DNA of 64,000 bases from an uncultured Clostridia bacterium (GCA_934500865.1 CAKSUD010000001.1:1509-65508); one strand, 5' to 3'; positions 1,390-28,304 are shown, numbered from the stretch's first letter. Numbers and translations: made by a program. Notes: generated by a model from the letters alone, not told the origin.

Positions 1390-3015
1390 ATGGGCAAGTT
1401 TTTTGGATTTAATGAAAATTATGTGGGATTATCTGATAATGAGGCGTGGCTTAGAGTTTATGACAAAGGTAAAAATTTAATGCCTATAAAAAACAAAAAA
1501 ATTCAACACAAATATAATAATATGTTTAGAAAAAAGACTAAAGTTATAAGAAGTGGAATTTCAAAATCCGTAAAAACAGATTGCCTTGTTCCAGAGGATA
1601 TAATTTTAGTTGAAAAAGGCGATTTTGTGCCTGTTGATGGTATTGTTTTAGAGGCAAACAATCTTTATATGGAAAATGATATTTGTTTTAATTCTGCTAA
1701 CATTGAAGTTGGAGAACAATATTATGATAAAGATAAGCCAGTTTACCAAGGAATGAAAGTAAAGTCTGGCAAGGGGTTAATTAGAGCAGAAAAAACCGGT
1801 ACTGAGACTTTACTTGGAGAACAGATAAAAGAAATTGATTTATTTAACAAAAAGGAAAGTAAGACTGCGAAGAAGTTTCTCGTTTTTTCAGGAATATTAA
1901 CAATTATACTATTTTTTATTGCTATTGGCACTCAATTCTTTAATTCTAAAGATTTCGGAATTGCTTTAAAATATGGTGTTATAATGCTTATTGCAGCTTT
2001 TCCGGTTAGTTTTTTAATTACAGTATTTATAAGAGTGTTTATGCAGTTAGATATTTTTAAGAAATTCGGGCTTGTATTGAAAAACAAAAATTATTTATTT
2101 GATTTTAGGAAATTAGATATTATTTGCATAGATAAGAAATTTCTTATTCAAGATTTTACAAAGTACATTCAAGATATCTTTAATGCAGGAATTAGGGTTG
2201 CCGTTATTAGTGATACTTCTTTGGAAGATACATTAAAATCAGCAAACGAAGCCGGAATTGACACTAAAAATACGACATATTTTTCGGGTGACGAACTAGA
2301 TAGAATGGAAGAAGAGGAATATGTAAAGGCAATATGCGAAGGAATAATATTTTATAATATAAGTCATAAGCAAAAAAGCAAAATGATAAAAATATTTGAA
2401 GAAGTAAAAATAAATGTGTTATGTGCCGGAGACGGGATAGAGGATTTAGCAAGTATATGGGAAGCATATATCGGACTTTCAAGCAATAGGACTAAAAGGA
2501 GTATAGATAGAGGCTTAGCTGATTTACTAATATCCGGCAATAATTTTTCAGCGGTATATAGACTAATAAAGAGCAGAATAGAATTTAGAAAGATGATTAT
2601 TTCAAACTTTAAGTTAAATATTGCCTTCCAAATTCCATTGATGTTTTTGACGCTATTTGCAGTTGTAAACAACATTGGCATTTTAAGTTTTGTTTTTCAT
2701 CTTTTAGCGTTGGAGCTTATAATTATTCCACTATTATTGATGTTTTCTACTAAAGGCTATAGTGAAGAAGAAATATTTGTTCCGTATGAAAATGAGTTAG
2801 GAATAAAGAGCGTTGCTAAAATGGCTGGTTTTGGCTTAATTATCTTAGCTATTTTGGCTGTCGGTTATGTTGGACTAAATGTTTTAATTAAGAATGATAT
2901 TATAAATGTAAGTATTGTTACTGTAGTGCTTGCGATATTCTATTGGGTATGTATTAGGTTAAATCAAAAGGTAGTTAAAAAGAATACTAAAATAGAAGAA
3001 CAAACCATAATTTAA
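1390..3015 (+). CDS. P-type ATPase-like membrane protein with degenerate catalytic motifs (putative pseudo-ATPase)
   Basis: RBS GAGGAG precedes the start. The actuator-like segment (VYQGMKVKSGKGLIRAEKTGTETLLGEQI) lacks TGES. About 6 TM helices are present, including a PEGL-like AAFPVSFL helix. DKTGT is replaced by ICIDKKF, and the N-domain is absent. The hinge GDGxND reads CAGDGIEDLAS. Confidence 0.55.
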   Translation: MGKFFGFNENYVGLSDNEAWLRVYDKGKNLMPIKNKKIQHKYNNMFRKKTKVIRSGISKSVKTDCLVPEDIILVEKGDFVPVDGIVLEANNLYMENDICFNSANIEVGEQYYDKDKPVYQGMKVKSGKGLIRAEKTGTETLLGEQIKEIDLFNKKESKTAKKFLVFSGILTIILFFIAIGTQFFNSKDFGIALKYGVIMLIAAFPVSFLITVFIRVFMQLDIFKKFGLVLKNKNYLFDFRKLDIICIDKKFLIQDFTKYIQDIFNAGIRVAVISDTSLEDTLKSANEAGIDTKNTTYFSGDELDRMEEEEYVKAICEGIIFYNISHKQKSKMIKIFEEVKINVLCAGDGIEDLASIWEAYIGLSSNRTKRSIDRGLADLLISGNNFSAVYRLIKSRIEFRKMIISNFKLNIAFQIPLMFLTLFAVVNNIGILSFVFHLLALELIIIPLLLMFSTKGYSEEEIFVPYENELGIKSVAKMAGFGLIILAILAVGYVGLNVLIKNDIINVSIVTVVLAIFYWVCIRLNQKVVKKNTKIEEQTII

Positions 3016-3407: not shown

Positions 3408-4412
3408 TTAATTTTCTATTGAAATTGCGTGAGCTATTCCGGAAATTGATTCTCCTTGTTGAATTGCAGTTGTACTCATAAGTGCGCCGGTTGCAACAAG
3501 AAGAATTCTGTTTAACTCTTTTTGCATTAATTTTTCATAGAGGTATCCGCAAAATACTGTTCCGCAACAAGCACATCCGCTACCACCCGAATGTGTGTCC
3601 TGTTGTGATTTGTCAAAAATTAAGATTCCACAATCATTGTATCTGTTTTTTATATTTATTCCTTGCTTGTAGAGTATATCTTTTACAATTTCGCCGCCGA
3701 TATGTCCTAAATCTCCGGTTACTATTAAATCATAATAATTTGGTTCTCTGCCTGTTTCTGTTAAGTGTGAATATATCGTGTCTGCTGCTGCCGGAGCCAT
3801 TGCCGCTCCCATATTATTTGCATCTTTTATGCCCATATCTACGATTTTTCCGATTGTTACATTTGTTATTTTAGGTCCAATATTATCTGTTGATATAATT
3901 GCCGCTCCCGAGCCTGTTACTGTCCATTGAGATGTTGGAGGACGTTGGTTTCCTAGTTCTAGGGGGAATCTAAATTGCCTTTCTGCCGAACAGAAATGAC
4001 TAGAGGTTACTGCTAAAATATTATCTGCAAATCCGCCATCAACTAGCATCGAACCCACAGCCATAGATTCTACCATTGTGGAACAAGCACCATATAATCC
4101 GATAAATGGTATTTCACTATCTCTTATTGCATACGACGATGAAATACATTGATTTAATAAGTCCCCGGCAAGGACATAATTAATGTCATCCGGAGTTTTT
4201 TGAGCTTTTTGTAAAACTTTGTTTATATTTTCTTTTGCCAGTTTTGATTCTGTTTTCTCAAAGCTTTTTTCACCCCAGTACTCATCTTCTAAAATATAAT
4301 CAAAGTATTGCTTAAGAGGACCTTCGCCTTCTTTTTTACCTACAATAGAGGCTGTTTGTATAATATGTGGTGTACTGTTTAGCGAAACAGTACTTTTTCC
4401 CAGTCTTTTCAT
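3408..4412 (-). CDS. spoVAD: Stage V sporulation protein AD (thiolase-fold)
   Basis: 334 aa with a SpoVAD-like condensing-enzyme fold. Flanked by the spoVAC-like and spoVAE-like genes. Confidence 0.85.
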   Translation of the reverse strand: MKRLGKSTVSLNSTPHIIQTASIVGKKEGEGPLKQYFDYILEDEYWGEKSFEKTESKLAKENINKVLQKAQKTPDDINYVLAGDLLNQCISSSYAIRDSEIPFIGLYGACSTMVESMAVGSMLVDGGFADNILAVTSSHFCSAERQFRFPLELGNQRPPTSQWTVTGSGAAIISTDNIGPKITNVTIGKIVDMGIKDANNMGAAMAPAAADTIYSHLTETGREPNYYDLIVTGDLGHIGGEIVKDILYKQGINIKNRYNDCGILIFDKSQQDTHSGGSGCACCGTVFCGYLYEKLMQKELNRILLVATGALMSTTAIQQGESISGIAHAISIEN

Positions 4413-4894: not shown

Positions 4895-6277
4895 CTAAAT
4901 TGTCAATATTCCGTTTGGAGTGTTTATTATTATTAAAATATCCTCTTCATTTCCCGTTTCTGCGTTTATATAAACAATAAAGTCTCTATCATTTACTTTA
5001 CCTGTGAATTCATATACTAAAACTTCTGTTTTTACTTCTGTTGGAATTATTGCTAGTCCTGAACTTTTGGCATTTAGATCTTTATTTATTAGTTCTTTTG
5101 CTTGGGCTTCTGTAATCTTTGGAGTGGCTATGTCACGTTTATGATGTGAAAATAAATATCCTGCCGATTCAAAGCCTAATGTTTCTCCGTTATCTAGAGC
5201 GACAGATACTTTTACTAAATCGGCGTATATGGTAACATTATCTTGTCTATACGCAAAGTTTATTGTTGCAATGTTATTTTGTTCTATATAATAAGTTGCT
5301 TCCATACTGTCAAGTCCGCGAGAAGAGAGAAAATCCTTAGCTTTTTGTTTTGCATCATCTATAGATAAGGTCTTGTCTTTTACATCACGATTGTAGAGCA
5401 TCCATATTACATGTCCGCCAACTTTTGAAATATCCATATTTGCTTCATTATCGTCAGTTAGTTTTGCAGTAATGCTATAACAAGGAATTTTTGAATTGTT
5501 TGAGTCACTAATTGAAGTTATTTCTTTTACTTTATCTTTTCCTAGGAAAGTTGTTGCTACATTTTTTGCTTCTTCGGCAGAAATAGGATTTCCGGTTATT
5601 CCTTTTGGTTCCATATTGGTTATATGGTCAGAAAAAGGGCCGTCATAAATAAGACCGGGATAATCTTGAAATGTGTCAGAGACTTGTTCAAATATATTTG
5701 AATTATCTGTTTGGTTGACTTGTTTAAATGTTGATGAACCTTTTTTCTTTATCTCATTCCAATACATTCTGCCTCCTCCGATTTGACCGGATAACTCAGA
5801 CATACTGTTTTGAAGTTTTGTAGCATAGTCAGATAAGGATTTTATTTGAGATAGCTGTTCATCAGATAATGCTTTTTGCTCAATTGTTTGCATTGTAAGT
5901 GCATGGGAAAAATCACTTGTTTGGGATAAAAATTTTGATGTTTGGGCGATTAGATTTTGCTCAATTGGAAGTTGTACTAAATTTGTCTTTGCTAAATTTG
6001 ATTGGCGCCATATTTCACTCATTGTTTTTGCCCCATGTACAGGGTCTTTACTTACTAATGCTTTGGCGAGTAATGTGTCTATATTTTCAACATAAGTGGC
6101 CAGTTCATAAAACGCATGGTTATAACCGTTTTCTAAAGCTTGTTTATTATCGTTTCTTATTTTAAAAATATATCCGAGTAGAATAAGTATTATAAGAAAA
6201 CTGGTTATTACAATAGTGAACATGTGTCTGTCTCTTAGTCTGTTTCTCCAGTCTTTTAATTTCTCAGTAAAGTTCAT
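4895..6277 (-). CDS. ypeB: Germination protein YpeB (SleB partner)
   Basis: The track ORF runs 4895..6355 and overlaps sleB. An internal Met (MNFTEKL...) followed by a TM anchor gives a non-overlapping start near 6277. The C-terminal PepSY-like region is typical of YpeB. Confidence 0.65.
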   Translation of the reverse strand: MNFTEKLKDWRNRLRDRHMFTIVITSFLIILILLGYIFKIRNDNKQALENGYNHAFYELATYVENIDTLLAKALVSKDPVHGAKTMSEIWRQSNLAKTNLVQLPIEQNLIAQTSKFLSQTSDFSHALTMQTIEQKALSDEQLSQIKSLSDYATKLQNSMSELSGQIGGGRMYWNEIKKKGSSTFKQVNQTDNSNIFEQVSDTFQDYPGLIYDGPFSDHITNMEPKGITGNPISAEEAKNVATTFLGKDKVKEITSISDSNNSKIPCYSITAKLTDDNEANMDISKVGGHVIWMLYNRDVKDKTLSIDDAKQKAKDFLSSRGLDSMEATYYIEQNNIATINFAYRQDNVTIYADLVKVSVALDNGETLGFESAGYLFSHHKRDIATPKITEAQAKELINKDLNAKSSGLAIIPTEVKTEVLVYEFTGKVNDRDFIVYINAETGNEEDILIIINTPNGILTI

Positions 6278-6297
6278 AAGCTTAATCCTCCATAAAT

Positions 6298-6735
6298 TTA
6301 TTTGGCAAAAACGTGCTTGCCAACAGTTTTTACAATATTTTTGCTCCAAATCCACTTACTTTTTGCGGTAGATGGGTTAAAAAAGTATAAACATCCGCCG
6401 GTTGGGTCGTATCCATTTAATGCCTCTCTAGCTGCTTTTCTCGCACTTGCATCTTGTGGAACTTCTTGGTTTATAGTACCGTTTGAAACAGGCTCAAATG
6501 CACCTGGTTGATAGATAACTCCGGATAATGAATTTGGAAAGTCAGGACTATTTACTCTATTTAAAATAACTGCAGCAACACAAACTTGCCCAAGATAAGG
6601 TTCACCTTTCGACTCGGCATGAACAATTCTTGCAAGTAATTCTTCTTCGTTATTTCTAGCGGTAGATGTAGCAGAAGATTTTATAGATGTAATAATTATT
6701 AATAGACAAATAGAAATAAGTATAAATTTTCTCAA
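6298..6735 (-). CDS. sleB: Spore cortex-lytic enzyme SleB/CwlJ-family cell wall hydrolase (catalytic domain only, with signal peptide)
   Basis: Signal peptide MRKFILISICLLIIITSIKSSA. Hydrolase_2-like region (ARIVHAESKGEPYLGQVCVAAVILNRV, GCLYFFNP). Sits immediately upstream of ypeB. Confidence 0.7.
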   Translation of the reverse strand: MRKFILISICLLIIITSIKSSATSTARNNEEELLARIVHAESKGEPYLGQVCVAAVILNRVNSPDFPNSLSGVIYQPGAFEPVSNGTINQEVPQDASARKAAREALNGYDPTGGCLYFFNPSTAKSKWIWSKNIVKTVGKHVFAK

Positions 6736-6800: not shown

Positions 6801-6830
6801 TTGCTATTTTGTGGTGAATTATGGTAAAAT
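6801..6830 (+). promoter_or_regulatory. Putative sigma-A promoter for upp (TTGCTA - 18 nt - TGgTAAAAT, extended -10)
   Basis: Motif read directly upstream of upp. Confidence 0.35.
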
Positions 6831-6910
6831 AATAAAGAGTCCCAAAGTAAGAAAAAACTTTGGAATTTTTTTAGGCAAAAATAAGTGTTAAGAAGGGGAG
6901 GAATAAAAGT

Positions 6911-7537
6911 ATGGAACCAATAGTTTTAACTCATCCGTTGGTAAAACACAAACTTGCAATATTGAGGGATAAGAATTCAGGTACTAAAGAATTTAGAGAG
7001 ATTGCATCGGAACTTGCCACAATGCTTTGTTATGAAGCTACAAAAGATGCTCCGCTATATGAAACGGAGATAGAAACGCCGATTGCAAAAATGAAAGTAC
7101 AAAAGTTAGATGAAGATAATTATGCATTTTTACCTATTTTAAGAGCAGGAATGAGTATGGTAGACGGGATATTAAATATTATTCCAAATGCAAAAGTAGG
7201 TCATATAGGATTATTTAGAAATGAAGAAACATTAGAGCCTACCCAATATTACTTTAAAGTTCCTCACGGAATTGAAAACAGAACAGTAATAATACTAGAC
7301 CCAATGATAGCAACAGGAGGAAGTGCCTGTGATGCAATTCAAAGTCTAAAAAATATAGGAGTAAAGAAAATAAAATTTTTGGCAATAATCGCTGTGCCGG
7401 AGGGATTAAAGAGAATCCAAGAAGCACATCCTGATGTGCAAATTTATTGCACAAGTATAGATAGTCACTTGAATGAAAATGGTTATATTGTACCAGGGTT
7501 AGGGGATGCCGGTGATCGTATTTACGGAACTAAGTAA
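6911..7537 (+). CDS. upp: Uracil phosphoribosyltransferase
   Basis: MEPIVLTHPLVKHKLAILRDKNSGTKEFRE is the canonical UPRTase N-terminus. Length 208 aa. Confidence 0.9.
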   Translation: MEPIVLTHPLVKHKLAILRDKNSGTKEFREIASELATMLCYEATKDAPLYETEIETPIAKMKVQKLDEDNYAFLPILRAGMSMVDGILNIIPNAKVGHIGLFRNEETLEPTQYYFKVPHGIENRTVIILDPMIATGGSACDAIQSLKNIGVKKIKFLAIIAVPEGLKRIQEAHPDVQIYCTSIDSHLNENGYIVPGLGDAGDRIYGTK

Positions 7538-7587
7538 TATTTCGGCTAAAATCACGTCCCAATTTATTTTGAAAAGGAGATAAAATT

Positions 7588-8325
7588 ATGAAGTATAAAA
7601 GAGTTTTACTTAAGTTAAGCGGTGGAGCCTTATCTAAGGATGAAAGACATGGTTATACAAAGGAAGCCCTAGAGCATATTACTGATGAAATTATTGCTGC
7701 GGCTAATGCAGGTATTGAAGTGGCGATTGTTACTGGTGGAGGAAATATTTTTAGAGGCAGAGTTGCTGATGAGTGGAATTTTGAAAGAGCTGAGGCTGAT
7801 AATATAGGAATGCTTGCTACAATTATGAACAGCTTAATGTTAAGAGGAGCTTTAACTGCAAAAGGAATGGAAAATGTAAGAGTTATGACTTCAATTCCTA
7901 TGAATACAGTTGCAGAGCCATACATAAGACTAAAGGCATTAAAGTATTTAGATAGAGGAAGAGTTGTAATTTTTGGTGGTGGAACAGGAAATCCTTTTGT
8001 TACTACTGATTATACTTCTATTCAAAAGGCTTTGGAGATTAGAGCAGATGTTGTTTTAATGGCTAAAGAAGGAGTAAATGGTATATATACAGCTAACCCT
8101 AAAGATGATCCAAATGCTAAGAGGTATAAAACAGCTACTTATGAAGAAGTTATTGCAAAGAAACTTCAGGTGGCTGATCAATCAGCATTTATACTAGCTA
8201 GTGAGTATAAGATGCCTATGTATGTGTTTGATTTTGATGAAAAGGATTCTGTTGTTAGATTGTGCAACGGAGAAAATATTGGTACATATGTTGGTGAAGA
8301 TTGCGTAACGGAAATGTACGAATAG
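7588..8325 (+). CDS. pyrH: UMP kinase (PyrH) homolog, likely paralog (located with upp, not tsf/frr)
   Basis: YKRVLLKLSGGAL, GGGNIFRG, DNIGMLATIMNSL, VAEPY, VVIFGGGTGNPFVTTDYT and ADVVLMAKEGVNGIYTANP all match PyrH. Confidence 0.8.
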   Translation: MKYKRVLLKLSGGALSKDERHGYTKEALEHITDEIIAAANAGIEVAIVTGGGNIFRGRVADEWNFERAEADNIGMLATIMNSLMLRGALTAKGMENVRVMTSIPMNTVAEPYIRLKALKYLDRGRVVIFGGGTGNPFVTTDYTSIQKALEIRADVVLMAKEGVNGIYTANPKDDPNAKRYKTATYEEVIAKKLQVADQSAFILASEYKMPMYVFDFDEKDSVVRLCNGENIGTYVGEDCVTEMYE

Positions 8326-8355
8326 ATATTTACAATGAATTTTAGGAGAAGTTAA

Positions 8356-10140
8356 ATGAAAAAGTTGGGATATTTAAAAAATATTTTATTTAATTCAGCT
8401 ATTTTGATATTAACATTTATAGCGGTAGTGTTAATAGTTTCTTCGAGCCTATTATTAATGCATATTAATATCTCAAAAGTATCTTTTATAGTATCAGGAG
8501 TTATTACATTAGCGGTATATTTTCTTATATACCGCTTTTTGCGTTTAAAAAAATCGGAGAGCACATTGGCTGAGAATGTTGGTGGGGCAATACTTGGAAT
8601 ATGTGTTTTTTTCATTTCATTGTTTGTTTGCACACAAATTTACGATTTGGCACACGATAGCAATTGGTATCATAAGGCTGCAATAGGATGTATGGCTAAT
8701 GGTTGGAATCCTTGTTATGAAAACATTACTGAGTTTGGTAGCCGTTCTAAAATAGGAATAGGGAATTTACCTGACTGTGGGATTTGGGTTGAACATTATT
8801 GCAAGGCTTCGTGGATTTTTGGTGCTAATGTATATTCGATTACCGGAGACATTGAAACTGCTAAATCAATTAATATATTGATGGTATATGTGTTATTTTG
8901 CTTTGCTTACTGTATATTATCTAAATACCTTAAAAATTGGCAGTCTATTATAATTGCTGTGCTTTTAACATTTAACCCGATTATATTGTCTCAAGTTTTT
9001 TCCCTTTATATAGATAATTTGTTGATGACAACATTATTTGTTATTGTACTTTTATTGGCAGATATAACATATAAAAAAGAATTTAATGATGTAAAAAAGA
9101 TTAACTTTTTAGCATTATTCTCGGCAATAGTTATTTGTATAAATATAAAATTTACCGGATTAGCATATGCGGGGATTTTTTGCTTTATCTTTTACTTAGT
9201 GTGGTTAGGTATTAGCATAAAAGATAAGAACTTTAAAAAGGTATTTATTTGGATGACTGCTTTTTATTTAGTTACATGCATAGTAGCAATAATTTTAGTT
9301 GGATTTTCTAGCTATGTAAAGAATTTTGTTGAGCATGGGCATCCGTTATATCCTCTTGCTGGTGAAGGAAAAGTAGATATAATGACGGGTAACCAGCCAT
9401 CATCTTTTGATAATATGATTGGAGTAAAAAAACTTATTTATTCTGTATTTTCAGAAACAGATAACATAGTTGGGGATGGAAGAAGTCCTAAACTTAAAGT
9501 TCCATTTAGGGTAAGTGAGTATGAAAAGGAAATATGTAAAAAGGGAGCGGATATAAGAATTGCTGGATTTGGTCCTCTTTTTAGTGGAATCTTATGTGTT
9601 TGTGCGCCGATTATATTATACGGATTGTTTTATTTATATAAAAAGGATAAAGAATGGTTTTGTATATATTTAACTTTACTTTGTATAATAGGTGGAATGC
9701 TACTTTTAATTCAAGAGAGCTGGTGGGCAAGATATTCGCCATATTTTTATCTTGTACCTTTAATGGCACTTATGATATTATTTAGCATATGGAACAGCCA
9801 AGGAAAAAGTGGTTTTGGTATAACTGGTTTGGGTATTTCTATTGTTTTAAGTGCGATTATATTTTTTAATAGTACATATTTTATGGATTATCCGATAAAT
9901 TGCAGAAAAGAAACGATAACTATTAAAGAGAATTTGGCTAAGGTTAGTGAGATTTCTAAGAGTCAGAGAGTGAATATTAAGTTTTTTACCTATGCTTATT
10001 ACGGGTTAGAATTTAATTTTAGAGATTATGGAATAAATTATAAGATTGTTGGTAGGACAACCGGAGAATTAGTACCGGTTTATGGTAAAATGGCTGAAAT
10101 GGAGGTAATTTACAATGAAGAAAATTTGCTCAATAATTAA
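8356..10140 (+). CDS. Polytopic membrane protein, GT-C-like (putative polyprenyl-phosphate-sugar dependent glycosyltransferase, AftB-like position)
   Basis: 594 aa with about 11+ TM helices. An Asp-containing first loop (YDLAHDSNWY) and a C-terminal soluble domain. Lies 30 nt after pyrH and overlaps the UbiA-like gene. Confidence 0.35.
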   Translation: MKKLGYLKNILFNSAILILTFIAVVLIVSSSLLLMHINISKVSFIVSGVITLAVYFLIYRFLRLKKSESTLAENVGGAILGICVFFISLFVCTQIYDLAHDSNWYHKAAIGCMANGWNPCYENITEFGSRSKIGIGNLPDCGIWVEHYCKASWIFGANVYSITGDIETAKSINILMVYVLFCFAYCILSKYLKNWQSIIIAVLLTFNPIILSQVFSLYIDNLLMTTLFVIVLLLADITYKKEFNDVKKINFLALFSAIVICINIKFTGLAYAGIFCFIFYLVWLGISIKDKNFKKVFIWMTAFYLVTCIVAIILVGFSSYVKNFVEHGHPLYPLAGEGKVDIMTGNQPSSFDNMIGVKKLIYSVFSETDNIVGDGRSPKLKVPFRVSEYEKEICKKGADIRIAGFGPLFSGILCVCAPIILYGLFYLYKKDKEWFCIYLTLLCIIGGMLLLIQESWWARYSPYFYLVPLMALMILFSIWNSQGKSGFGITGLGISIVLSAIIFFNSTYFMDYPINCRKETITIKENLAKVSEISKSQRVNIKFFTYAYYGLEFNFRDYGINYKIVGRTTGELVPVYGKMAEMEVIYNEENLLNN

Positions 10141-10981
10141 ATTGATGCGTCCACATCATTATATAAAAAATGGCTTGTTATTTTTACCGCTTGTTTTTAG
10201 CGGAAATTTATTAAATAAAGACTTCCTTATTGTATTAATGATAGGCTTTTTGGCTTTTTGTCTTTCTTCATCAGTTATTTATATAATAAATGATATTTTT
10301 GATGTGGAAAAAGATAAATTGCATCCTAAAAAATGCAAAAGACCAATAGCATCGGGTGAAATTTCAATTAAATTTGCTTGGGTTTTAGCTATTTTATTAC
10401 TAGCAGTAGTTGTGGCATTAAATTACATTATTGCAAGTAACAACATTGGTGCTTGGGTACTTTTAGGATTATATATTGTGCTAAACTTTGCATACAGTAT
10501 GGGATTAAAACAAGTACCGTTATTAGATATTGCAATATTAGTTTCTGGATTTTTAATTAGAGTCTTATATGGAGCAAGTATAATAAGTGTTGTTGTTTCT
10601 AATTGGCTATACTTAACTGTAATTGCTATGGCTTTTTATTTGGGATTAGGAAAAAGAAGAAATGAAATGGCTAGACAGGGAAGTGATACAAGAAAAGTTT
10701 TGCAATTTTATAATTATAATTTTCTAGATAAGAATATGTATTTGGCTAATGCACTTACAATTGTTTTTTATTCGCTTTGGTGTGTTGATGCCGGAACTAT
10801 TGCGAGATTTTCGAACAAATTGATTTGGACAGTTCCACTAGTTATGCTAATAAGTATGAAATATAGCTTAAATATAGAAGGAAATTCAGATGGAGACCCT
10901 GTTGATGTGGTATTGAGTGATAAGATTTTAGTAGTGTTAGCTATGATTTATGTAATTTCGATATTAATTCTTACGTATTAA
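10115..10981 (+). CDS. UbiA-family prenyltransferase, decaprenyl-phosphate phosphoribosyltransferase (DPPR synthase)-like
   Basis: RPHHYIKNGLLFLPLVFSG plus the NDIFDVEKD (NDxxDxxxD) motif. Polytopic, 288 aa. Start overlaps the end of the upstream gene. Confidence 0.65.
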   Translation: MKKICSIIKLMRPHHYIKNGLLFLPLVFSGNLLNKDFLIVLMIGFLAFCLSSSVIYIINDIFDVEKDKLHPKKCKRPIASGEISIKFAWVLAILLLAVVVALNYIIASNNIGAWVLLGLYIVLNFAYSMGLKQVPLLDIAILVSGFLIRVLYGASIISVVVSNWLYLTVIAMAFYLGLGKRRNEMARQGSDTRKVLQFYNYNFLDKNMYLANALTIVFYSLWCVDAGTIARFSNKLIWTVPLVMLISMKYSLNIEGNSDGDPVDVVLSDKILVVLAMIYVISILILTY

Positions 10982-11001: not shown

Positions 11002-11065
11002 AAAACAGTGTACTATATCGGCTGAAAAAAACAATTTTTGTTTTACACGGCATAGCACACTGTTT
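11002..11065. repeat. Palindromic hairpin repeat, copy 1 (AAAACAGTGTACTATAT...CGGCATAGcACACTGTTTT), likely terminator of the UbiA-like gene
   Basis: Inverted repeat with an enlarged loop containing a nested AAAACAAtttTTGTTTT palindrome. Same core as the copies at 16451 and 20365. Confidence 0.6.
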
Positions 11066-11137
11066 TATTATGACGGAAAATGTTTTTTACAATTTTAAAG
11101 TAAAAAATAAGAAGAACCTTTAAGTTCTTCTTATCTT

Positions 11138-11224
11138 TGGTGCGCGAAACCGGAATCGAACCGGTACGGTATCGCTACCGCAGGATTTTAAGTCCTGTGC
11201 GTCTGCCTGTTCCGCCACTCGCGC
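11138..11224 (-). tRNA. tRNA-Leu (anticodon UAA)
   Basis: Reverse complement reads GCGCGAGTGGCGGAACAGGCAGACGCACAGGACTTAAAATCCTG...GGTTCGATTCCGGTTTCGCGCACCA. It has a long variable arm, anticodon loop CTTAAAA, and an encoded CCA. A hairpin plus T-run follows on the minus strand (11103-11137). Confidence 0.85.
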
Positions 11225-11514
11225 ATGAGCATATAATAGCACATAGTCATTTTGTTGTCAATTAAAAAAACAAAAAAATTGTAGAATTTTTTTTCACTAA
11301 ATATAAATAGCTAACATTAATATTGCTATAATACAGTAATACAGTGAAAAAAATGAAATTATAAAAAAAATAAAAAAAATTTTTAAAAAGTGTTAAGAAA
11401 AAAAAATTAAATACGATAAAGGAATTGTAAAGGATATAAAGATGTTAAAAATGGATGTTCAAAAGATGGATGTCAAGGAAGAAAAAGACGGTAAAAATTA
11501 AGGAGGAATTAATC

Positions 11515-12957
11515 ATGAGGATTAATCACAACATTTCGGCAATTAATGCCCACAGACAATTATCATCAAATCAAGGAGCTACATCAAAGTCATTACAAAA
11601 ATTATCATCAGGTTTAAGAATTAACAGTGCAGCTGATGATGCAGCAGGACTCGCTATAAGTGAGAAAATGAGAACACAAATCAGAGGTTTGGAGAAAGCT
11701 CAAAGTAATGCACAAGACAGTATATCTTTGATTCAAACTGCAGAAGGAGCCTTACAAGAAGTAAGTAATATTTTGCAGAGAATGAGGGAATTAAGCGTTC
11801 AATCTATGAACGGTATTCTTTCTGAAACTGAAAAGGATGCAATATCTGCTGAAATGACGCAACTTAGACAAGAAGTCGATCGTATTGCAGAAACAAGTAA
11901 ATTTAATAATACATATCTTCTCAAAGGTACGCTTGGTATGACTGCAAATACTGCAACGTCAAGTATTTATACAACTAATTCTGTTACAGGAAAAGCTGAA
12001 TTAATGAACGGAGTAGTTGGTTTAGATGTAGCTGCTGCTGAGAAGAATACAGAATATACAATTTCTGTGGGTAATAAAACAGTATACAATGCTTCTACTA
12101 AAGATGATGCAGAAGCTAAGTATGTTATACCTGCAGCGGCAGATGGAAATACCGCAAAGGAAAGTGATAATGCAAACTATGCTAATAAGGCAGGAAAATG
12201 GATAAAAACTGATGGTAGTGAGTATGATCCAGCGGCTGATGGAGCTGACCCTACGGCTGTTGCAAAATATATCATACCAGATGATGCTGATGGTAGAACA
12301 ATTAAAAATGATACTGAAGGAGTAAGCGGAAAGTCTGGCTGGGTAAAAGCTGAGACATCTCAAGCACTTCAAATCACATATAAAGATATATCTGGTAAAG
12401 AAGTAACAGCAACAAGCACAATTGACCCGGCTTCTACATTCTCTGGTTTCATTGGATTCACAGATGCAAATGATAGCGATTCAGGTATTAAGATTCAAGT
12501 TGAAGATATGGATTTAGCTCAATTAGATGGTGTAGTTGTTAACACATCTGATGGCGGAAAGACGAATCTTCACATCGGTGCTAACTCAGTTGATGCCCCA
12601 TTAAAAATTGAAATTCCTGATTTAAGAGCTAGAGCTCTTGGAATAGAAGACTTAAGCATAGTTACAACAAATGATGCAAAGCAAACTTTGGATAAAATAG
12701 ATAATGCACTTACAACATTAAGCTCAGCAAGAGGTAACTTAGGTGCATACCAAAACAGACTTGAATATACATTAAATAGCTTGGCAGCTTCTGCTGAGAA
12801 CTTAACAGCGGCTGAATCAAGAATTAGAGATGTTGATATGGCTAAGGAAATGATGACATTTACACAAGCTAATATCCTTAACCAATCTGCTACTGCAATG
12901 CTTGCACAAGCAAATCAACAACCTCAAACAGTATTACAATTATTACAAGGATTATAA
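11515..12957 (+). CDS. fliC: Flagellin (orphan fliC-like)
   Basis: RBS AAGGAGG, then MRINHNISAINAHRQL. Conserved D0/D1 termini (LSSGLRINSAADDAAGLAISEKMR ... QANQQPQTVLQLLQGL) around a variable central domain. The track ORF start at 11455 is probably spurious. Confidence 0.9.
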   Translation: MRINHNISAINAHRQLSSNQGATSKSLQKLSSGLRINSAADDAAGLAISEKMRTQIRGLEKAQSNAQDSISLIQTAEGALQEVSNILQRMRELSVQSMNGILSETEKDAISAEMTQLRQEVDRIAETSKFNNTYLLKGTLGMTANTATSSIYTTNSVTGKAELMNGVVGLDVAAAEKNTEYTISVGNKTVYNASTKDDAEAKYVIPAAADGNTAKESDNANYANKAGKWIKTDGSEYDPAADGADPTAVAKYIIPDDADGRTIKNDTEGVSGKSGWVKAETSQALQITYKDISGKEVTATSTIDPASTFSGFIGFTDANDSDSGIKIQVEDMDLAQLDGVVVNTSDGGKTNLHIGANSVDAPLKIEIPDLRARALGIEDLSIVTTNDAKQTLDKIDNALTTLSSARGNLGAYQNRLEYTLNSLAASAENLTAAESRIRDVDMAKEMMTFTQANILNQSATAMLAQANQQPQTVLQLLQGL

Positions 12958-27257: not shown

Positions 27258-28304
27258 TTAATTTTTAAAAACCCATTTTACCTGTATTCTAAAACTAAGG
27301 AGAAATAAAATTACATCCATTAGCATTTTTGCAAGTACCTGATTAAAACCTAATCTTATTGTGAGCAGGTAGATACCTGTATATGATAACATTATAGTAA
27401 TAGCTACTAAAGTGTAATATTTAATTATACTTTTCTTTAATCTTGCTTTTGTATTAAAAACTAATTTCCTATTTAGATTAAAATTAATAAATGATGAAAT
27501 TAGTCTGGCAACAACAGTTGCTATAAGCAATGAAAGGGCATGAGGAAGAAAAGCAAAAATAGCTCCTAATAAAATAAATAAAGCATAGTCACAAAGTATA
27601 GATGAGAAGGAAGAACACATAAATTTAAAAATAACTTTGTAGATACTGAAAGAATCTGTGAGAGGATTAAAGTTACTTGTTGTGTTTCCGTTTATGTATA
27701 CAGTTTCAATCGGAACTTCCATAATTTTTATTCCGTATGTCTTTGTGTCTAGGAGCATATTGGTTTCAAATTCAAATTTTTCCCCTAAAGTATTAGTTAG
27801 TTTTTCAACGAATGTTGCTGGGATTGCTCTAAGTCCTGTTTGTGTGTCACTAATATTTAAATCACAAAATAGTTTAAAAGCAAGTGAAGTAGCTTTATTT
27901 CCAAACCTACTTTTGTTAGGCACATCATGCTGATTAAAATTTCTAACACCTAAAACTAATTTCCCAGGATTTTCTTTTAATGCTTTAGCACATTTTACAA
28001 CGTCTTTTACTTTGTGCTGGTTGTCGGCGTCTAAAGTAACAACACCTACATCGTTTGGAAAATGCTTTAAGAAGTATTTAAAACCTGTTTTTAATGCTCG
28101 TCCTTTTCCTAAATTCTCTTCGTGAGTTATAAGAACACAGTTCTTGTTTCTCTTTACTTTATCGAATAGATTCAAGAATTTTGAATCAGTCCCGTCATTT
28201 ATAACAATTATATGTTTGAAACCGGCTTGCACTAATCCTTCTATGACTGTGTGAAATTTCTTGTCAGGATTATATGCCGGAATTATTGCGGTTATATTAT
28301 CCAT
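27258..28304 (-). CDS. GT2 polyprenyl-phosphate glycosyltransferase with C-terminal GtrA-like domain (GtrB/CsbB-like)
   Basis: AIIPAYNPDKK ... VTLDADNQH (DxD). The C-terminal ~120 aa form a 4-TM GtrA-like domain. Lies 4 nt after murC. Confidence 0.7.
   Translation of the reverse strand: MDNITAIIPAYNPDKKFHTVIEGLVQAGFKHIIVINDGTDSKFLNLFDKVKRNKNCVLITHEENLGKGRALKTGFKYFLKHFPNDVGVVTLDADNQHKVKDVVKCAKALKENPGKLVLGVRNFNQHDVPNKSRFGNKATSLAFKLFCDLNISDTQTGLRAIPATFVEKLTNTLGEKFEFETNMLLDTKTYGIKIMEVPIETVYINGNTTSNFNPLTDSFSIYKVIFKFMCSSFSSILCDYALFILLGAIFAFLPHALSLLIATVVARLISSFINFNLNRKLVFNTKARLKKSIIKYYTLVAITIMLSYTGIYLLTIRLGFNQVLAKMLMDVILFLLSFRIQVKWVFKN

Follow-up and report, generated by a model that had tools for sequence, protein, structure and literature searches.

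A predicted polyprenyl-phosphate phosphoribosyltransferase and a GT-C-fold membrane protein as a candidate pentofuranose glycosylation module in an uncultured gut Clostridia bacterium

The stretch of DNA analysed here, 64,000 nucleotides from an uncultured Clostridia bacterium (CAKSUD010000001.1:1509-65508, assembly GCA_934500865.1; hereafter the window), contains a run of four plus-strand open reading frames (ORFs), which encode a uracil phosphoribosyltransferase (Upp), a UMP kinase (PyrH), a polytopic membrane protein of 594 aa and a UbiA-superfamily protein of 288 aa (Table 1). The first three ORFs are separated by 50 and 30 nt and the last two overlap by 26 nt, with the ribosome-binding sites AGGAGA and GGAGG upstream of the starts of the 594-aa and 288-aa genes. 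Coordinates, strand and spacing are exactly those given in a preliminary description of the locus, made from the sequence alone, which had regarded the four genes as one module linked through phosphoribosyl pyrophosphate (PRPP). The reading favoured here, to which we assign a probability of roughly 0.7, is that the last two genes, encoding a predicted polyprenyl-phosphate 5-phosphoribosyltransferase (PPPRS) and a GT-C-fold glycosyltransferase, would constitute a two-gene glycan-modification module, with upp and pyrH as incidental neighbours.

Among the UbiA models of NCBIfam, the 288-aa protein exceeds the cutoff of NF008978, stays below those of two sister models for decaprenyl-phosphate 5-phosphoribosyltransferase (DPPRS; scores of 200 vs 234 and of 162 vs 474) and reaches at most 64 bits with all the others. 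Its best match in the PDB is the DPPRS of Mycobacterium tuberculosis (8j8j, E=1.7e-35); the other UbiA enzymes trail it by about 27 orders of magnitude, the next of them giving 3e-8. The protein begins with MRPHHYIKNGLLFLPLVFSG and contains both the Mg/PRPP motif NDxxDxxxD (NDIFDVEKD, residues 59-67, with N59, D60, D63 and D67) and a KRxxE motif (KRRNE, residues 180-184), signatures of cytoplasmic loops II and IV in these enzymes, each of them aligned with its counterpart in 8j8j. Residues equivalent to these two motifs are required in the ORF15 protein of Citrobacter youngae and in the M. tuberculosis DPPRS (PMC11127046). The characteristic N-terminus and the first motif had already been pointed out in the preliminary description, together with the proposed affiliation to the DPPR-synthase clade, and all three hold, so that the protein is best described as a predicted PPPRS. 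Since the NF008978, 8j8j and motif evidence place it with the DPPRS enzymes, the refuting outcome that had been foreseen, a clustering with menaquinone or heme-O UbiA enzymes, does not apply, and an enzyme of either type is ruled out by the NCBIfam and PDB scores. No second PPPRS was significant in a tblastn search of the window, and a search of phages with the PPPRS gave one match, in an unannotated record of 6.6 kb.

The 594-aa protein is assigned to no family by Pfam or NCBIfam, and a profile search of the PDB sequences with its family returned no match. Hydropathy and the positive-inside rule predict 13 transmembrane (TM) helices in an N-in/C-out topology, the last of them followed by an extracytoplasmic C-terminal domain of about 85 residues. 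A structure model of high confidence indicates that the protein has a GT-C fold: the top 16 Foldseek matches are all GT-C enzymes, and in the fold comparison the highest values correspond to ArnT (15.3), ALG12 (14.4), Pmt4 (13.9) and AftA (13.6), with lower ones for PglB (11.7), AftD (11.6) and AftB (9.9). The suspicion that this polytopic protein of about 600 aa was GT-C-like is thus borne out, and a transporter, with Foldseek probabilities below 0.2, was rejected. The supposed likeness to AftB survives at the level of the fold, but not at that of the sequence (hhalign of the family against an AftB homologue detected no similarity, with a probability of 0.1%), and ArnT and AftA are structurally closer. 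An alignment of 43 family members contains 28 invariant columns, including D101, D220, K265, R401 and the WARY stretch at 457-460, and the conserved polar residues are all placed in outer loops by the positive-inside rule. D101 is invariant in this alignment and D97 is conserved in at least 90% of the sequences; both lie in a 77-residue outer loop after TM3. This position agrees with the conserved acidic residue that GT-C enzymes carry in the extracytoplasmic loop after the first core TM helix, which makes D97 and D101 candidate equivalents of the catalytic ArnT aspartate. The Asp-bearing first outer loop mentioned in the preliminary description is therefore present as the first large one, although it follows TM3 and not TM1.

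Sub-threshold matches to PMT, STT3, Wzy_C or EpsG appear sporadically in a few members of this family. An O-antigen ligase or polymerase was rejected, as the weak Wzy_C matches are confined to 6 of the 43 members and the best fold matches are GT-C enzymes. EpsG gives one sub-threshold match among the same 43, and an EpsG-like CDD signature is borne by the C. youngae ORF12 protein of family GT136 (PMC11127046). A tblastn search of plasmids with the GT-C protein gave no match.

The occurrence of the GT-C and UbiA-like genes as a unit, one of the proposals of the preliminary description, finds support in their relatives. Searched with a profile of the GT-C family, a collection of 1.84 billion representative proteins yielded 2,133 clusters (defined at 50% identity) at E<=1e-30; those with a named source bear the label hypothetical. 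The linkage was analysed in a sample of 87 loci with a family member, which were searched by tblastn and are partly redundant, since near-identical contigs from several metagenomes are included. A PPPRS homologue was found at most 3 kb from the GT-C gene in 53 of these 87 loci, on the same strand in 52 of the 53, and a HAD phosphatase lies nearby in 35 of the 87. In the subset of 44 loci flanked by 3 kb or more on each side, 28 contain a PPPRS (19 of them also a HAD phosphatase), 11 have a GT2 gene instead and 5 have neither. Relatives at 47-48% identity show the order GT-C, PPPRS and hydrolase; a gene encoding a HAD-GtrA fusion accompanies them on the other strand. Besides, some family members are themselves fused to a HAD domain (P0294) or to both HAD and GtrA domains (P0380), and these proteins may be taken to connect the family to the phosphoribose pathway in the manner of a "Rosetta stone", although gene-calling artefacts are possible among the fusion proteins. 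Other fusions were observed among P0343 and P0245, to which the same caution applies: a PMT_2-type GT-C joined to a family GT-C, and a protein of 1149 aa with a full-length profile match at residues 577-1147 and a second, weak one.

The two-gene form made of GT-C and PPPRS is also present, as an island of its own, in other metagenome-assembled genomes (MAGs) of Clostridia. One such island (L001) adjoins a dlt-like operon, a second one (L093) follows a gene for an SLH-domain surface protein, and a third (L094) lies between a P-type ATPase and a fucosidase. In the first of them (L001, 1634-7883), the pair is found directly 3′ of genes for an AMP-binding enzyme, a small carrier-like protein, an MBOAT protein and a polysaccharide deacetylase. 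The context of L001 weakly hints at a teichoic-acid-like polymer as the acceptor.

The most probable pathway for the pair would start with the PPPRS, which would move ribose-5-phosphate from PRPP onto polyprenyl phosphate on the cytoplasmic side of the membrane, the lipid carrier being presumably undecaprenyl phosphate in this Firmicute. The 5-phosphate would then be removed and the lipid-linked ribofuranose flipped outward, steps that in most related loci could be carried out by a HAD-IB phosphatase and a GtrA protein. Finally, the 594-aa GT-C would pass the pentofuranose to an acceptor of the envelope, with wall polysaccharides, teichoic-acid-like polymers and surface proteins as candidates. 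The use of a polyprenyl-phosphate-linked donor by the GT-C is predicted from its adjacency either to PPPRS or to GT2 and GtrA genes, together with the HAD-GtrA fusions; the same linkages and fusions point to lipid-phosphate monosaccharides as the donors of the whole family, with most members tied to one derived from PRPP. The polyprenyl-phospho-pentofuranose donor for an envelope glycan put forward in the preliminary description continues to be the best reading, as a prediction.

The preliminary description had also assumed that such a combination would be new, yet systems with a PPPRS and a GT-C for pentofuranose, Gram-positive candidates included, were published in 2024. Biochemical work on these systems showed that alpha-pentofuranose side chains are attached extracytoplasmically by the combined action of three proteins, a PPPRS, a flippase and a GT-C (Kelly et al., PNAS 2024, PMC11127046). 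In C. youngae O1/O2, the PPPRS (ORF15) is fused to a HAD phosphoribose phosphatase (PRP), ORF14 is a MATE flippase and ORF12 is the GT-C that founded GT136; elsewhere the flippase may be of the MATE or of the SMR/GtrA type, and epimerases are present when xylofuranose (Xylf) or arabinofuranose (Araf) is made (PMC11127046). The same survey lists candidate Gram-positive systems with unknown glycans, whose GT-C genes are mostly annotated as hypothetical (PMC11127046). As in C. youngae, a GT-C-fold enzyme is encoded in the window beside a PPPRS of the UbiA type that shares the catalytic motifs, no recognisable epimerase accompanies them, hence the prediction of ribofuranose, and the GT-C gene carries the hypothetical annotation seen in that survey. 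The differences are also clear: the PPPRS of the window lacks the HAD/PRP fusion, related loci rely on a HAD-IB protein encoded by its own gene and on GtrA in place of MATE, the GT-C combines 13 TM helices with the C-terminal domain of about 85 aa instead of a carbohydrate-binding module, and the module lies outside any polysaccharide cluster, in a Gram-positive sporeformer.

Several observations weigh against the assignment of the pair to these systems, beginning with the redundancy of the 87 loci noted above. The window provides the PPPRS and the GT-C of the three-component system, but neither a dedicated flippase nor a phosphoribose 5-phosphatase: tblastn found no HAD phosphatase and no significant homologue of HAD-GtrA in the 64 kb, which likewise contain no stand-alone GtrA or MATE flippase, so that the dephosphorylation and flipping steps are left without an assigned gene. 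No DprE1/E2-like or SDR epimerase was recognisable in the window either, by inspection of the ORFs and partial, non-exhaustive Pfam scans. The only GtrA domain in the window is fused C-terminally to a 348-aa GT2 similar to PpgS, AglJ and dolichyl-phosphate-hexose synthases (27258-28304, minus strand), next to murC and 17 kb from the module; this second lipid-linked sugar donor synthase could supply another donor. Moreover, about one quarter of the well-flanked loci pair the GT-C with GT2 and GtrA genes of the hexose type and not with a PPPRS, and a more distant sub-clade is located in polysaccharide clusters where an ABC transporter, GT2 and GtrA are encoded but a PPPRS is not, which indicates that the family also admits donors other than pentofuranose.

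These last data lend themselves to a different explanation, in which the GT-C of the window would draw on a hexose or HexNAc linked to polyprenyl phosphate and synthesised by the GT2-GtrA fusion, while the product of the PPPRS would serve another purpose. Both the PpgS/AglJ-like enzyme of the window and the sub-clade found in GT2 and GtrA clusters agree with it; on the opposite side stand the 26-nt overlap of the GT-C and PPPRS genes, the HAD-GT-C fusions that bind the family to the phosphoribose route, and the neighbourhoods of the nine related loci with a GT-C of 43% identity or more to that of the window, where a PPPRS is adjacent in 7/9 and a GT2 in 0/9 at the bit-score threshold used. A hexose donor is therefore regarded as unlikely. 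Much the same kind of comparison can be made with Gtr-type systems (GtrA, GtrB and Gtr*; CsbB, GtcA and YfhO in Firmicutes), whose Firmicute versions glycosylate teichoic acids. A lipid-phosphate monosaccharide made inside, a flipping step of the GtrA type and an outside GT-C are features in common with them, as is the GT-C sub-clade in GT2 and GtrA clusters, whereas the donor synthase of the window is a PRPP-dependent enzyme of the UbiA type and not a GT2 dependent on UDP-sugars.

As regards the sugar, ribofuranose is the default because no epimerase is recognisable, and it is the most likely sugar to be transferred by the pair. The donor could otherwise be epimerised to arabinofuranose or xylofuranose before the transfer, by enzymes encoded elsewhere in the genome, of which only 64 kb are visible. 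Epimerised donors are known from mycobacteria, from pilin glycosylation in P. aeruginosa and from C. youngae O2, and all known Araf and Xylf pathways begin at this same PPPRS step (PMC11127046). Yet the epimerase genes cluster with the module in the systems described (PMC11127046), and neither an FAD oxidase plus SDR pair nor an ORF13-like epimerase was recognisable in the window or beside the module in four close relatives (L001, L005, L093 and L094), which makes an epimerised donor very improbable. A further conceivable reading takes the lack of phosphatase and flippase at face value, so that the pair, co-transcribed with upp and pyrH, would represent a distinct variant, either an envelope (phospho)ribosylation gated by the supply of PRPP or pyrimidine or a delivery of ribose-5-phosphate, in place of ribose, to the wall polymer; such a variant, which we consider very unlikely, would turn the 594-aa family into a new CAZy family of Firmicute pentofuranosyltransferases.

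The mycobacterial pathway, to which the preliminary description had compared the locus, comprises the UbiA/DPPRS Rv3806c, the phosphatase Rv3807c, DprE1/E2, Rv3789 and the GT-C enzymes AftA-D and Emb. The aftB-ubiA neighbourhood cited there is visible in a Tsukamurella contig (L095), in which a PAP2 phosphatase gene is followed by DPPRS and then by an overlapping aftB, but the gene order is reversed in the window, where genes for PAP2 phosphatase and DprE1/E2 are missing. Furthermore, the lipid would presumably be C55 instead of C50, and the product a decoration instead of an arabinan. A parallel in a cultured Firmicute may be found in the exopolysaccharide (EPS) cluster of plasmid pF27D of Lactococcus cremoris (L088, 10587-13706), which encodes a hypothetical membrane protein of 462 aa, a PPPRS 52% identical to that of the window (labelled decaprenyl-phosphate phosphoribosyltransferase in RefSeq), a HAD-IB phosphatase and GtrA. 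This dairy Lactococcus apparently carries a complete set of genes for a pentofuranose side chain. In contrast with the window, the genes of pF27D are inside an EPS cluster on a plasmid, and hhalign detected no relation between the 462-aa protein and the 594-aa family.

All in all, the pair probably belongs to the recently defined systems of extracytoplasmic pentofuranose glycosylation, to which it would contribute a large uncharacterised GT-C family. It represents a compact candidate system by which an uncultured Clostridia species of the human gut could decorate its surface with pentofuranose, and gives the members of a large family, annotated as "hypothetical" membrane proteins, a predicted role as GT-C transferases fed by lipid-linked ribose derived from PRPP. 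If confirmed, the three-component pathway published in 2024 would extend to gut Firmicutes, and the 594-aa family would probably define a further glycosyltransferase family.

A last question concerns the two genes that precede the pair. The identity of upp is well supported (Table 1). In the case of pyrH, the encoded protein is closest in the PDB to 2jjx, the BA1797 protein of B. anthracis, with 301 bits, against at most 206 bits for all other solved UMP kinases; the 2jjx chain is in turn about equally distant from the PyrH of S. aureus, S. pyogenes and E. coli. The gene thus falls in a divergent BA1797-type clade, which renders plausible the label of "pyrH paralog" given in the preliminary description, although tblastn found no significant second pyrH in the window. 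At 65-70% identity, homologues of the gene are found in three other, unrelated surroundings, from which upp, tsf/frr and the module are all absent. It was also noticed that its close homologues in other Clostridia MAGs never adjoin tsf or frr.

Upp and PPPRS both consume PRPP, and this common substrate speaks for the idea, advanced with the preliminary description, that the four genes are a functional unit in which uracil salvage and PPPRS are coupled through the supply of PRPP or of pyrimidine nucleotides, so that envelope pentosylation would be tuned to the pyrimidine status. So do the tight spacing, the overlap of the last two genes, the terminator-free junctions with one strong terminator at the end, and the preservation of the order in all contigs of the species of the window and in one relative (L004); the same species, with the same four-gene order, recurs in several human-gut metagenomes. 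However, among the 87 loci of the GT-C family, upp-pyrH lies beside the module only in the species of the window and in L004, whose GT-C is 82% identical, and the linkage is missing from the other 85 loci as well as from the three contexts of close pyrH homologues. Such a confinement to one species and a close relative does not support a functional PRPP coupling. In L004, moreover, upp and pyrH are split by an insertion of tandem repeats of approximately 340 nt, in place of the 50 nt of the window, and the module is known as a free-standing island in unrelated contexts. UDP and UMP are not used by the pathway (PMC11127046). A functional four-gene unit is thus very unlikely, and the link to pyrimidine salvage, from which the apparent unusualness of the locus came, does not stand. 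The evidence favours instead that upp and the BA1797-type pyrH are a pair for the salvage of uracil to UDP, chance neighbours of the module in a lineage-specific juxtaposition. Identities between the window and L004 are 99% for Upp, 97% for PyrH, 82% for the GT-C and 87% for the PPPRS, a divergence that corresponds to the usual contrast between housekeeping and surface-glycan genes. The L004 insert itself (3575-3900) consists of two tandem copies of a repeat of about 105 nt plus a short element that resembles the hairpin region at 11030-11050 of the window, which suggests the presence of small mobile repeats in this lineage.

In the species of the window, upp, pyrH and the GT-C/PPPRS pair are nonetheless probably co-transcribed. 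All three gene junctions are free of terminator-like sites, as the preliminary description had stated, but the hairpin 3′ of the last gene is not the first one, as had been claimed there. It is preceded by a strong hairpin with a T-run inside the 594-aa gene (codons 52-64). A stretch of 38 nt spanning the intragenic hairpin is identical in L004, in contrast to the codons on either side; the hairpin might act as a terminator or attenuator within the gene, or be due to chance. The hairpin 3′ of the last gene, with an A-run and a T-run on its flanks, is likely the terminator of the four-gene unit, given that none of 200 shuffles folds as well; the earlier designation of this element as a repeat was not upheld, since it has no second good copy in the window. 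Upstream of upp, a consensus scan gave a sigma-70-like promoter candidate, whose conservation in L004 is uninformative because this contig is too closely related, and the leader contains a hairpin that is possibly a transcription attenuator. An Rfam scan of the upp leader matched no family, the PyrR element included, and that of the whole window returned two tRNAs and nothing else.

Table 1. Genes and candidate transcription signals of the locus (positions counted from the first nucleotide of the window)
Feature	Position	Strand	Evidence
GT-C-fold membrane glycosyltransferase of an uncharacterised family, 594 aa; predicted extracytoplasmic pentofuranosyl (ribofuranosyl) transferase	8356-10140	+	
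Predicted PPPRS/DPPRS of the Rv3806c type, UbiA superfamily, 288 aa	10115-10981	+	NF008978, 212.6 bits (cutoff 207)
upp, uracil phosphoribosyltransferase, 208 aa	6911-7537	+	NF001097, 285 bits (cutoff 114); TIGR01091, 282 bits (cutoff 208); PF14681, E=1e-75
pyrH, UMP kinase of the divergent BA1797 type, 245 aa	7588-8325	+	TIGR02075, 282 bits (cutoff 244)
Sigma-70-like promoter candidate 5′ of upp (TTGCTA, 18-nt spacer, TG, TAAAAT)	6801-6830	+	consensus scan only
Hairpin and T7 run in the upp leader, 5′ of the ribosome-binding site	6842-6863	+	fold z-score only -0.7
Hairpin in the GT-C gene, 10 bp, GC-containing, followed by TTTTTGCGTTT	8511-8546	+	-13.7 kcal/mol, z = -3.9
Long hairpin 3′ of the last gene, likely terminator	11002-11066	+	-22.7 kcal/mol, z = -4.0

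With regard to the surroundings of the module, the flagellin locus next to which it had been described amounts to one flagellin gene followed by recJ, with a tRNA-Leu gene of opposite orientation (11138-11224) between it and the module. Its proximity is consequently given no weight, and a link to flagellin glycosylation was rejected. The mechanical start of the flagellin ORF (11455-12957) is probably too long, the likely start being at 11515 (MRINHNISA, after GGAGG). Similarly, the ypeB ORF (4895-6355), with 486 aa, is probably too long, since it has 460 aa in sister contigs, a length that removes the overlap with sleB. Finally, an ORF of 541 aa (1390-3015), also called in other contigs of the species (L096), matches only the E1-E2_ATPase (actuator/TM) domain of P-type ATPases, without the hydrolase domain.

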